Shown here piece after piece: positions 48,233-51,207 of a stretch of 64,000 nt of DNA. The notes under the pieces are model-generated. The model was given only the letters and a program-made list of their open reading frames with translations. It was not told where the DNA came from and did not search any database. The stretch's first letter is position 1. Every line of letters starts with the position of its first letter. The stretch is from an uncultured bacterium (GTDB lineage Bacteria > Myxococcota_A > Bradymonadia > UBA7976 > VGTA01), in assembly GCA_943788935.1 (NCBI GenBank), contig CALSSE010000003.1, positions 150,493 to 214,492 on the forward strand. The letters run 5' to 3'. A program made the translations under genes and the position numbers.

Positions 48233-48350
48233 GCTAAATAGGAACTCACTTCCGCTTTAATCAACAGATGTCATACACAGATGTCATACACAGATGTCAT
48301 ATACTGAGAGAGCGTCTCACTTCTAAATAGGAACTCACTTCCGCTTTAAT
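48233..48350. repeat. Two identical 28-bp elements (ctaaataggaactcacttccgctttaat) flanking three 13-bp iterons (cagatgtcataca); candidate centromere or operator region downstream of parB
   Basis: Directly visible. The element core GGAACTCACTTCC is an imperfect palindrome. A third, inverted copy lies at 51180-51207. Confidence 0.85.
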
Positions 48351-48382
48351 ATAAAAACGAGAGACTCGCTAGAGAGTCCACC

Positions 48383-49198
48383 TTAATCTTTAGAGAGCTT
48401 AAGAGCTTTCTCTAGCTGACTGAGCAGCTGTTTATCCTCTCGCAAGAGGGGATGATCTAACCACTTGTTAACCTGTCGGCTTATGCTCTTTCGTAGTTTT
48501 AAGCGGTCTCTCTCGGGGGTAGATCTTTCTGTTTTTTTACTACGACTAGTCCCCTGTCCCCCCTCCGAATGTAGCTCTTCTGACTTTGTCAGGTCCTCAT
48601 TGAGCAGCGCTCTCACATAACGTGTTGAGACTCCAAAAGTGTTTGCCAAAAAAGGAGTTAACGCTCGCTCTCCTTTTTTTAGTCGGCCCGGTCGACGAGT
48701 AAAACTAGAGTCTGTGGCGATCAGTCGTTGAGCAGCTGCTTGTACTTGCTCAGGGGTAAGGTTACTGCGTTTCTCGTTCTCAGCGATCTCTTTAATGAGC
48801 GCTTGTTCTGGCTGGAGAGTCGCGTCTAGGTCAGGATCTACCACAACAGGAATCTTAGACCACCGTTGTGAATCTTCTTGATGTAACCGCTTAAAGGCAG
48901 TGAGGCGGTGAGCACCGGCGACGAGATGAAAGTTTCTATCTAAATAAATAGGCTGGATTAAGCCTACTAATTTAATCGATTCCATCAGTGCCAATACATG
49001 CTCATTATCCACAGGCCGTGTGTCTTCGCTTGGCCGTTCTTTAATCATCTGAACAGAGAGTAAACGAGCCGCATTTTCGCGACGAACGTTATCCTCTTCT
49101 ACCTTAATATCAGCGACGGCTGAACGACGACCAGCGGCAACCGCTAAAGCTGCTGCCCCTCCTAGCCCTTTCTTTCCTCTAGATAGCTTACCCGCCAT
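48383..49198 (-). CDS. parB: ParB/Srx-domain partition protein (ParB-like nuclease domain)
   Basis: HVLALMESIKLVGLIQPIYLDRNFHLVAGAHRLTAFKRL is a ParB N-terminal domain. A C-terminal HTH-like region follows. Overlaps parA by 11 bp. Confidence 0.7.
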   Translation of the reverse strand: MAGKLSRGKKGLGGAAALAVAAGRRSAVADIKVEEDNVRRENAARLLSVQMIKERPSEDTRPVDNEHVLALMESIKLVGLIQPIYLDRNFHLVAGAHRLTAFKRLHQEDSQRWSKIPVVVDPDLDATLQPEQALIKEIAENEKRSNLTPEQVQAAAQRLIATDSSFTRRPGRLKKGERALTPFLANTFGVSTRYVRALLNEDLTKSEELHSEGGQGTSRSKKTERSTPERDRLKLRKSISRQVNKWLDHPLLREDKQLLSQLEKALKLSKD

Positions 49199-49913
49199 TG
49201 AGCCACACTCCGATCTCCTCTAACTCAGGAAACACCTTCGCTCGAGGGTCAAATACATGGAGTGGGAGCTGCTCAGTAAGAGAATATGCGACAGAGATAT
49301 CCTGTCGAAAACCAAACGTAGGTGTCTCAGGAAAGAGCTCACTCAAGCTCTCTTGGAGGGTTTTATCGAGGTTCCTCCTTAAATCAATCATCGATTGGAC
49401 TAACGCATACCTAGATGGCCCTGGTCGCTGTCGATGTCGCCTAGCATCAATCAAACCTGCGATTCGAGCAGCTCCTGAGATCGCGAAAGGATGAGCGATC
49501 ACTGGAATGAGGGCTTGATCTGCAGCCACTAGACCTAAACGCTCTAAGTGCTCGGAGTATGGAGGGAGATCAATAATAATCACCTCAGGTGCTAACTGAT
49601 GATCGCTGATGAGATCTCGGAGAGCCTCAGGCTCTAAAGAGGATACCTCAACGCTGTTCAGCTCTGGTCCCCCTGCTAAGATAGAGATATGATCATGGAG
49701 AAGAGTGGGGATGATCTCTTCTCCTTTGAGAAATTCAGCAGCTCCCCTAGCGCCTGGCTCACCACCTAGCCCAAAAGTTACATTCCCTTGAGGATCTAAA
49801 TCGATCAACAAGACCGACCTCCCCTCACGAGCAAAGTACGAGGCGAGCGCAGCGCTCAACGCAGACTTACCCACTCCACCTTTACGACACCCGATCGCGA
49901 CGCTAATTGTCAT
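49188..49913 (-). CDS. parA: ParA/MinD-family partition ATPase
   Basis: Deviant Walker A IGCRKGGVGKSALSAALA followed by LLIDLDPQGN. Confidence 0.8.
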   Translation of the reverse strand: MTISVAIGCRKGGVGKSALSAALASYFAREGRSVLLIDLDPQGNVTFGLGGEPGARGAAEFLKGEEIIPTLLHDHISILAGGPELNSVEVSSLEPEALRDLISDHQLAPEVIIIDLPPYSEHLERLGLVAADQALIPVIAHPFAISGAARIAGLIDARRHRQRPGPSRYALVQSMIDLRRNLDKTLQESLSELFPETPTFGFRQDISVAYSLTEQLPLHVFDPRAKVFPELEEIGVWLNGG

Positions 49914-50339
49914 AGCTACTCCTCATCACAGCAGGTCGAGACATCTTCACAGTCTCCCCGCTCTCTTGGCTTGGACATAGAGTCACCGAGTGACTCTTCA
50001 CAAGATCAGAACAGTTAAAAATCTCAGGCGGCTTCATTCATCATGAACCCCTCAGCTTTATCTCCTCTCCTCCTTAACAAATGTCAGACCGATGGGTGAA
50101 CTATAATTTAGTGATTGGTTAATAAAAAATTGAACACTCAATAACACTGATCATAAGTTCATACTGAAAACCCTTTTCTACAACACTAGGCCCATCTGCC
50201 CATAAAACTGCATAAGTTATAAACAAAACACTAGCTGTGGCCAAATTAAAGACATCAGCCTCTAAAATATAGCTTGGAGCTCATGAATAATGTTAATCTG
50301 ATATTAAAAGACAACAATCCCCAAAGAGACGAGTAAAAG
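49914..50339. promoter_or_regulatory. AT-rich ~425-bp divergent intergenic region between parA and the 50340 gene
   Basis: Markedly lower GC than surrounding sequence, with runs such as ttaataaaaaattgaac and ataaacaaaacac. Likely carries the divergent promoters. Confidence 0.5.
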
Positions 50340-51182
50340 ATGAGTAAAAAGATATCTATCCCTCTGCAACACCTAAGCCTCTCGCTTACCCTCTTCTGCA
50401 CAGGGACTTTTTGTTTCTCTTGTGATGGAGAGAGTCAGGTCGATGGTGAAGTCATCTATGTCCCTTCTTCTATGACTGGTTCTGATATGGGAGATTTTCT
50501 TGACCAAGGAGAGCAGATGAACCCTCTCGATATGGAATCACCGGATGACCTCCTCACTCTCACCATTAGAGCGATCGATCCCCTAAGTGGTCAAGGAGTC
50601 TCTGGGCTCACTCTGACTCTCGCCGCTGGCGAAGTGGGAGACTCAGTCGAAGATGAGCAGCTCTCCACAGATCAGAGCGGAACAGCCTCTATCCGCTTGG
50701 CTCCTCTGAGTGACTATGAAGTGATCATTAACGGTGAAGGGTACTCAGCTCATCATCTCTTTGGTTCACTCGGTGAGAGTGACGCGACTCAGATCTCTTT
50801 TGTGAGCCCTGACACCCTCACAGCTCAAGTATTCTCAGCGCTAGGGACCAGTCCTGATCCTACCAAAGGGATCGTCGTTATCGGCCTAGATCAGCCTAAT
50901 TTAGCTCCTGCGGTTGGGACAAGAGCGGATCTCTCTTCTGACTATGAAAAGTCGTTCACCTTGGGCTCTTTTGGTCCAAGCGAAGGGAATGAAGTGATCT
51001 CCGGAGGGGGTGGTTTTGTGAGTTTTGCCAACGTAAGCCCCGGTGAGGCGATCGTCTCGGTAGAACCTAAAATGGCAGAACGCTGTGCTGTTTTCCCTCG
51101 GAATGAATCCTCAGAATACACTCTCCCTGTCTATGCTGGAGAAGTGAGCGTTATGGCCTTTATTTGCCAACCTCTCCCCTAA
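50340..51182 (+). CDS. Secreted protein with a carboxypeptidase-regulatory-like (Ig-like beta-sandwich) domain
   Basis: Signal peptide. LTIRAIDPLSGQGVSGLTLTLAAGE...TDQSGTASIRLAPLSDYEVIINGEGYS resembles the CarbopepD_reg fold. Confidence 0.4.
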   Translation: MSKKISIPLQHLSLSLTLFCTGTFCFSCDGESQVDGEVIYVPSSMTGSDMGDFLDQGEQMNPLDMESPDDLLTLTIRAIDPLSGQGVSGLTLTLAAGEVGDSVEDEQLSTDQSGTASIRLAPLSDYEVIINGEGYSAHHLFGSLGESDATQISFVSPDTLTAQVFSALGTSPDPTKGIVVIGLDQPNLAPAVGTRADLSSDYEKSFTLGSFGPSEGNEVISGGGGFVSFANVSPGEAIVSVEPKMAERCAVFPRNESSEYTLPVYAGEVSVMAFICQPLP

Positions 51183-51207
51183 AGCGGAACTCAGTTCCTA
51201 TTTAAAT
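51180..51207. repeat. Inverted copy of the 48.2-kb palindromic element (taaagcggaactcagttcctatttaaat), overlapping the stop codon of the 50340 gene
   Basis: Its reverse complement atttaaataggaactgagttccgcttta matches the 48233/48323 element at about 25 of 27 positions. Confidence 0.8.

Follow-up and report, generated by a model that had tools for sequence, protein, structure and literature searches.

What is a partition gene pair with the character of a plasmid system doing in an apparently chromosomal setting, and what are the palindromes that surround it? The question is raised by a 64,000-nucleotide stretch of the genome of an uncultured bacterium assigned to the Bradymonadia (assembly GCA_943788935.1, contig CALSSE010000003.1, positions 150,493 to 214,492; hereafter the window), in which parA and parB are bracketed by copies of a palindromic element. 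A preliminary description of the locus offered three functions for the palindromes, as ParB centromere or operator, as terminators, or as the boundaries of a small element; the comparative data favour the first, and the other two were not supported. We consider it likely that the locus is a ParA-ParB-parS module of plasmid ancestry, since settled stably in the chromosome of a marine lineage, with the palindrome as its parS. The narrower proposition, that the palindrome is the cognate ParB site (candidate parS) of this ParB subfamily, is very likely, because the palindrome is conserved in the non-coding DNA of syntenic species, occurs in or beside parB on plasmids, and tracks a predicted recognition helix, VSTRYVR. 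As to whether the system takes an active part in positioning or segregating this region of the chromosome, we judge the chances to be even.

The genes lie on the minus strand in the order parA then parB, the start of parB overlapping the end of parA, and a gene for a lipoprotein-like protein is transcribed divergently. The principal features, in window coordinates, are as follows.

48234-48261: parS-like palindrome copy farther from parB, 28 base pairs (bp), exact repeat; core GGAACTCACTTCC at 48241-48253.
48323-48350: parS-like palindrome copy adjoining parB, 28 bp, exact repeat.
48383-49198, minus strand: parB, 271 amino acids (aa); ParB/Srx N-domain, helix-turn-helix, disordered linker and C-terminal helices.
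49188-49913, minus strand: parA, 241 aa; ParA/Soj-type ATPase with the deviant Walker A motif KGGVGKS.
50340-51182, plus strand: divergent secreted or lipoprotein-like protein gene, 280 aa; weak CarboxypepD_reg match.
51180-51204: third parS-like palindrome, inverted, containing the stop of the lipoprotein gene; its core, GGAACTCAGTTCC, is a perfect palindrome.

The repeated element after parB is real. The 27-mer TAAATAGGAACTCACTTCCGCTTTAAT occurs exactly twice in the window (48235-48261 and 48324-48350) and was matched in 0 of 100 shuffles, and the identical stretch extends to 28 bp; the preliminary description had placed the second copy correctly at 48323 and the first, which begins at 48234, one base too early. 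The two copies start 89 bp apart and the third palindrome is 2.85 kilobases (kb) away. An inverted copy over the stop codon of the lipoprotein gene (TAA, 51180-51182) is likewise present where it had been reported; its identity to the parB-side copies, given as 25 of 27, comes to 23 of 25 bases at the most favourable alignment, or 23 of 27 over the full 27 bp, and it was not recovered by a search with the 27-mer at up to 3 mismatches. The shorter sequence GGAACTNANTTCC matches the window at the two parB-side sites and at 51186-51198 only, with 0.02 matches expected. A looser 17-mer search of the 64 kb, at up to 3 mismatches, added a single match at 31139, at chance level, and GGAA-N5-TTCC has no further occurrence in the window or in related loci of 9-21 kb. 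The search for further copies, which the preliminary description had proposed for the whole genome, gave none beyond the three in 64 kb, and when 185,579 species genomes were scanned for the exact pattern a related genome bin was matched at the par locus alone. Written as a search pattern, the palindrome is AAANNGGAANNNNNTTCCNNTTT.

Relatives of the system are few. A search of 5.8 billion proteins returned only 29 ParB relatives at E ≤1e-5, with identities from 97% to 35%, and an exhaustive comparison of 1.84 billion representatives with a profile resolved four tight clusters, with a gap to about E = 1e-40 and 92 proteins at ≤1e-30. A metagenome scan with the ParB profile yielded three close loci, all short (L015-L017), its other 77 matches being distant ParB-like proteins that were not used. 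Five further species have the same gene order around the par genes (loci L011/L095, L096, L098, L100 and L101, of which L098 starts inside parA), and the related genome bins carry the NCBI labels Myxococcales or Deltaproteobacteria. The shared order runs from peptidase U32 through CM/GDPD, peptidase M16, a redoxin and the divergent lipoprotein gene to parA and parB, and continues past parB with a membrane protein of 170-176 aa, an IgGFc-binding-like gene, a CarH-like regulator and a radical SAM gene. Identity between the window and the five species is 76-87% for ParA, 61-67% for ParB and, among loci holding that gene, 45-53% for the lipoprotein. Synonymous divergence (dS) from the syntenic species is saturated, being greater than 1.6 or not computable, and non-synonymous divergence (dN) is 0.12-0.19 for parA and 0.26-0.40 for parB; with dS saturated, these values suggest in a qualitative sense that the par genes are under purifying selection.

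Because dS is saturated, neutral DNA is expected to be randomised between these species, and it is against this background that the persistence of the palindrome should be read. It lies directly after parB in every syntenic locus, the number of tandem copies ranging from 1 to at least 7, and a single copy lies directly after the stop of the lipoprotein gene in every syntenic locus extending that far. The copies after parB are distributed as follows; the arrays of L003, L096 and L098 contain scaffold gaps.

Window: 2 copies, 89-bp unit.
L011: at least 6 copies, 45-bp unit.
L096: at least 7 copies, 47-bp unit.
L098: at least 5 copies, 55-bp unit.
L100: 2 copies, 64-bp unit.
L101: 1 copy.

The spacers between copies are unrelated from species to species. 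Over 15 distinct versions, 13 of 23 columns are invariant and the consensus is AAA[GC/TA]GGAACTNAGTTCC[TA/GC]TTT, 23-27 bp in length; the L101 site is a perfect 23-bp palindrome, and sites in that locus are GC-flanked on both sides. In the window, L011 and L096 the GC-type half-site points inward at both ends, which is not so in L100, and we build nothing on this orientation.

The second line of evidence comes from plasmids. For both ParA and ParB the closest annotated relatives, at 38-42% identity, are encoded side by side as pairs on plasmids of cyanobacteria: Leptolyngbya BL0902 unnamed1, where the pair adjoins a CyRepA1 replication gene, Tolypothrix PCC 7910 unnamed5, Nostoc ATCC 53789 pNsp_j and Acaryochloris pMB07. 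When these plasmids were searched for repeats, AAAAATAGGAACTSAGTTCCTATTTTT emerged, and comparison of the motif by blastn with 72,556 plasmids gave four strong matches only, in Tolypothrix PCC 7910, Nostoc ATCC 53789, Acaryochloris 'Moss Beach' and Leptolyngbya BL0902, all of them in or beside parB homologues. The Tolypothrix copy is inside parB; in Leptolyngbya the 3' part of parB contains one copy, and another is found downstream. A parS inside parB is also known for spo0J of Bacillus subtilis. The plasmid pairs share with the marine loci the overlap of parB and parA, box II of the form G(A/G)HRL, an ENEKR motif, the helix VSTRYVR and the palindrome AAATAGGAACTSAGTTCCTATTT. They differ in being plasmid-borne, in having a single site in the 3' part of parB (plus the one downstream in Leptolyngbya) and in lacking the tandem array, the distal site and the lipoprotein gene, which accompanies parAB throughout the syntenic clade. 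The flanks of the half-sites differ too: both are TA on the plasmids, and for the most part one is GC and the other TA in the marine loci.

The second Leptolyngbya site belongs to a 152-nucleotide palindrome-bearing piece of the 3' part of parB that has been duplicated downstream at 74% identity (L104 3006-3157 and 3387-3538), which suggests a route from an intragenic site to an external site or array.

The third line is the correspondence between site and protein. The helix VSTRYVR (VSKRYVR in L101) is common to every ParB with the motif at its locus, and corresponds in the window protein to the predicted recognition helix, residues 192-200 of a structural model made with AlphaFold2 (AF2). 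On plasmid pANL of Synechococcus elongatus, where the ParB helix is KSRSTILRY, the motif was not found. A sister clade of three loci (L102, L103 and L109; ParB 52-55% identical) has the helix VSVRHVR and no GGAAC palindrome motif nearby. The context of these loci is different, parAB being divergent from an HD-domain gene, with a conserved CATACATGTAGGTNTATGTA over the start of the HD gene (L102 3410-3470, L103 6860-6920, L109 4135-4195) and GATCAAGAAAAACA plus TTGACA upstream of parA; a search of the three for any shared repeated palindrome gave only the promoter-region palindrome over the HD-gene start.

The proteins themselves agree with the description of the locus as a parA-parB module comprising a ParA with a deviant Walker A motif and a ParB with a ParB/Srx domain and helix-turn-helix. 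The ParA motif is GCRKGGVGKS at residues 8-17, Pfam matches are to AAA_31, CbiA and ParA, comparison with Soj of Thermus thermophilus gives 5e-22, and there is no N-terminal DNA-binding extension in the protein. The ParB family profile matches the structures of ParB, Noc and Spo0J proteins with E from 4e-7 to 1e-3 (ParB of Helicobacter pylori, T. thermophilus and Myxococcus xanthus; Noc). The AF2 model of ParB, with a mean predicted local distance difference test score (pLDDT) of 78, has a match probability of 1.0 with each of Noc, pNOB8 ParB-N, the Caulobacter ParB-parS complex, ParB of M. xanthus and B. subtilis, and KorB, and superposes on the Caulobacter complex over 176 columns with a root-mean-square deviation (rmsd) of 4.0. 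From the N-terminus the model comprises a basic peptide, KxKRGLGLGG, a long helix, the ParB/Srx domain and the helix-turn-helix, after which a disordered linker (209-223) leads into the C-terminal helices. As had been noticed from the sequence, this ParB is not of the GERRxRA type: box II reads GAHRLTA in the window in place of the canonical motif, and AGAHRLxA is invariant in 22 family members.

Several observations weigh against the palindrome as parS of a chromosomal ParABS. The window holds just two sites after parB and one beyond the lipoprotein gene, and another assembly of the same species (L007) has one site after parB, the 89-bp unit that includes the 13-bp repeats described below being missing there (L007 1260-1359); the difference is either a real polymorphism in copy number or a collapse introduced by the assembler. 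The genome-wide check used one exact variant of the motif and, of the source genome, covered 64 kb. The sister clade keeps parAB with no motif nearby, so that either parAB can persist when no sites adjoin it or the sites lie elsewhere. ParB barely passes the Pfam ParB_N cut-off (26.5 against 26.3) and fails the NCBIfam model TIGR00180 for ParB/RepB/Spo0J partition proteins (29.1 against 58.45 bits). Finally, box II with GAHR resembles the GCHR motif of sulfiredoxin, and for this reason nucleotide use may differ from that of ParB proteins that act as CTP clamps, and CTP-dependent clamping may not apply.

Could the palindromes owe nothing to ParB, and be transcription terminators or repetitive extragenic palindromic (REP)-like repeats? 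All three copies do follow stop codons in the sense direction, and the copy at 51180 folds slightly better than shuffled sequence (z = -2.35). The hairpins they would form in RNA are weak, at -4.2 to -7.1 kcal/mol, the parB-side copies have z = -0.45 and -0.9, and a terminator scan made no call on the palindromes, while giving parB a hairpin and T-run of its own:

48356-48379, minus strand: terminator-like hairpin and T-run, directly 3' of the parB stop and before the first palindrome; two overlapping predictions, -8.2 kcal/mol.

A terminator or REP-like element is also hard to reconcile with the want of further copies in 64 kb, with the position of the motif inside a coding region on plasmids and with arrays of at least seven units, which as terminators are implausible. 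We regard this explanation as scarcely credible, and of those considered here we give it the least weight.

The palindromes might instead be the ends of a recently integrated plasmid or small mobile element, since inverted 27-bp copies bracket about 3 kb that hold plasmid-type genes and a cargo-like gene. Yet the same insertion context is found in five other species from which the window is separated by saturated dS. One of the supposed ends is a tandem array of variable copy number, and on plasmids the motif is inside parB. Pfam scans of the window's open reading frames (ORFs) of at least 120 aa found no integrase, transposase, relaxase or Rep family, and neither GC content nor GC skew shows a break at 48.2 or 51.2 kb, the discontinuity that the preliminary description had suggested looking for, cumulative skew falling steadily throughout. 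Recent integration is accordingly very improbable. The weak hairpins, the terminator-like structure belonging to parB and the conserved flanks speak against the suggestion that the elements are boundaries or terminators.

That the contig is or contains an extrachromosomal or integrated element had also been raised, and in its strongest form this would make the contig a secondary replicon, a chromid or megaplasmid, with the parABS as its own partition system. Both proteins are of plasmid type, and the contig on which the identical ParB sequence is on record, 563,578 bp in length, is not a closed chromosome; the same sequence is also present in several marine metagenome assemblies. Canonical parS, TGTTNCACGTGAAACA, has as its best counterpart in the window a single match with 3 mismatches, which is at chance level. 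Weighed against these points, the window has no Rep-type family among the ORFs scanned, no turn of GC skew at the locus and no cluster of DnaA boxes, the only box in the 64 kb being inside parB and at chance level. Neighbouring genes are of core type (ndk, trmB, trmI, photolyase and htrA), and their order is stable across species; the functions encoded in the window include TrmI, TrmB, photolyase, CstA, PrkA, HtrA, UDP-glucose dehydrogenase, UDG, Ndk and a Ser/Thr kinase. A secondary replicon thus seems improbable, if less so than recent integration. More generally, the length of the contig, flanks conserved at saturated dS, the lack of Pfam matches to mobility or Rep families and the even GC composition do not bear out the proposed plasmid or integrated element, and it is unlikely that the locus is a replication origin or belongs to a plasmid or mobile element.

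The repeats lying between the two parB-side palindromes had been read as iterons and as centromere-like. They are present as described:

48265-48303: three 13-bp tandem repeats, CAGATGTCATACA, the third with one mismatch.

Such repeats are seen in no locus of the related species and are confined to this one, in which they are missing from L007. They resemble other intergenic repeats of the window, where tandem repeats are unusually abundant: 14 of the 43 arrays found by Tandem Repeats Finder fall in the approximately 10% of DNA that is non-coding. Because of this distribution, the 13-bp repeats fit a general habit of the genome, and they are probably incidental spacer DNA inside the duplicated 89-bp unit. 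We therefore rejected them as an origin or ParB site, given that they are not conserved, are missing in L007 and have many counterparts in other spacers. An iteron-type replication origin was rejected as well, on the absence of the repeats from related loci and L007, the failure to find a Rep gene in the window and the position of the sole DnaA box inside parB.

The spacer repeats have units of 7-23 bp, in as many as 13 copies, examples being 46249-46401, 39583-39672, 24989-25062, 35588-35651 and 33508-33558. This habit is a possible lineage trait, and may have been a source of the parS arrays of sister species.

If the palindrome is parS, how might the module work? ParB dimers would bind each palindrome through the helix-turn-helix, with VSTRYVR as recognition helix, and would accumulate over the bracketed segment of about 3 kb to form a ParB-DNA complex. 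ParA-ATP on the nucleoid would contact this complex, its cargo or regulatory partner, through the basic N-terminus of ParB, a peptide that would also stimulate ATP hydrolysis by ParA. The divergent promoters would be in the middle of the bracketed segment:

49914-50339: divergent promoter spacer between parA and the lipoprotein gene, 426 bp, 40% GC; block conserved across species at about 50066-50110.

The spacer thus has the length earlier given as about 425 bp, and its supposed AT-richness is only modest, at 40% GC against 45-52% across the window. No ParB half-site with fewer than 2 mismatches is present in the window spacer, and the spacers of the other species have chance-level matches only. 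Because the parA promoter lacks half-sites, autoregulation, if there is any, would come from the flanking sites, by ParB spreading or sliding inward.

A ParB operator in the parA promoter was considered and rejected on the same scan of the window spacer. The spacer is otherwise unalignable between species, and its one conserved block, upstream of parA and read on the minus strand, is GTTTCA/AGTTCA ... CTTGnTA[AG]nGA, which could be a promoter or operator.

An arrangement of this kind also invites comparison with KorB-IncC of plasmid RK2, in which KorB, a CTPase of the ParB family, represses at long range from palindromic OB sites. On such a model ParB at the flanking palindromes would silence or tune parAB and the lipoprotein gene with ParA as co-regulator, and no DNA would be segregated; the palindromes would still be ParB sites. 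The sites do bracket a single divergent promoter region, an arrangement kept in all syntenic species where it is visible, and they are distant from the promoter they could control, as are those of KorB. A promoter free of ParB half-sites fits action at a distance, the ParB model matches KorB (8QA8 and 8QA9) as well as it does ParB structures, and there is no origin signature at the locus. Purely regulatory function is harder to square with ParA being the most conserved gene of the module (76-87%), with arrays after parB that hold from 5 to at least 7 sites and resemble plasmid centromeres, not dispersed operators, with the replication genes that adjoin the homologous plasmid systems, and with the absence of the lipoprotein gene from the plasmid systems and the sister-clade loci. 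No KorA-like partner was identified here, moreover, and the sequence of the sites is unrelated. We consider a regulatory module of this type unlikely, though it deserves more weight than a secondary replicon.

For the preferred reading, a ParABS of plasmid ancestry with the palindrome as parS, a parallel in layout, clearest in sister species, is sopABC of the F plasmid. In this type Ia partition system sopC lies downstream of sopB and is made up of 43-bp repeats, 12 in tandem, with an inverted repeat in each. The same succession of parA, parB and then an array of tandem units, one palindrome to each, is seen in L011 (6 or more units of 45 bp), L096 (7 or more of 47 bp) and L098 (5 or more of 55 bp); there are two units in the window and in L100, and a single one in L101. 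Differences from sopABC are the two copies of the window, 89 bp apart, the extra distal site, the chromosomal location, a ParA of 241 aa that lacks the N-terminal DNA-binding domain of SopA, and a site sequence unrelated to sopC. Chromosomal ParABS systems (Soj/Spo0J, with a 16-bp parS and a CTP-dependent clamp) share with ours the domain plan of ParB and its fold, as matched in Caulobacter, M. xanthus, B. subtilis and T. thermophilus, a small Soj-like ParA and a palindromic parS. They are unlike it in box II (GERR, not GAHR), in the TIGR00180 score, which is below cut-off here, and in the sequence of parS; nor does the 64-kb window have a canonical parS or an origin signature. In layout, then, the system is like a type I ParABS, and on sequence it groups with the ParAB subfamily of cyanobacterial plasmids.

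Candidate roles are the positioning of a chromosome region, primary segregation of the chromosome, or KorB-like regulation of the bracketed genes. A more specific possibility, which we offer tentatively, is that of a domesticated plasmid-derived ParABS away from the origin and with a sulfiredoxin-like (GAHR) ParB pocket, acting either as a second centromere or ParB-coated domain that positions a region of the chromosome arm, or as the sole segregation system in place of Soj/Spo0J.

The searchable literature yielded no description of the motif as a parS and nothing relevant on parS of cyanobacterial plasmids. What is new is a defined candidate parS shared by marine Myxococcales-like chromosomes and cyanobacterial plasmids, and the apparent retention over long times of a plasmid-type module at one place in the chromosome, maintained there by purifying selection. 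A candidate centromere sequence, AAATAGGAACTNAGTTCCTATTT, together with its GC-flank variant, can thereby be assigned to a ParB subfamily annotated on cyanobacterial plasmids. The site could serve the design of plasmid vectors in cyanobacteria, for which Tolypothrix PCC 7910, Nostoc ATCC 53789 and Leptolyngbya BL0902 are culturable hosts, and the locus raises the question of what role a ParABS away from the origin, with a non-GERR ParB, might have.

Some minor observations may be added. Exact matches to the motif in three Nitrosospira genomes, Christiangramia and a gammaproteobacterial bin have no ParA or ParB nearby and were set aside as chance or unrelated occurrences. The Nitrosospira genomes, three strains of Nitrosospira multiformis, share AAAGCGGAACTCAGTTCCTATTT (L010 4305-4326, L013 814-835, L014 1310-1331), and their 8-kb loci contain neither a ParA nor a ParB homologue. 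Within the window, a regulator with MerR and B12-binding domains (CarH-like) stands beside a radical SAM gene at 37272-39551, and the syntenic species keep these two genes together beside the par locus. Four adjacent minus-strand genes at 25319-30199 encode 3-beta-HSD/epimerase, AMP-binding, alpha/beta-hydrolase and FabH-like domains, the set typical of an olefin cluster of the OleABCD type. Lastly, a perfect tandem repeat of 15 bp in 12.5 copies (5889-6076) lies inside an ORF at 5602-6735 that has a weak 'Decapeptide repeat' match.

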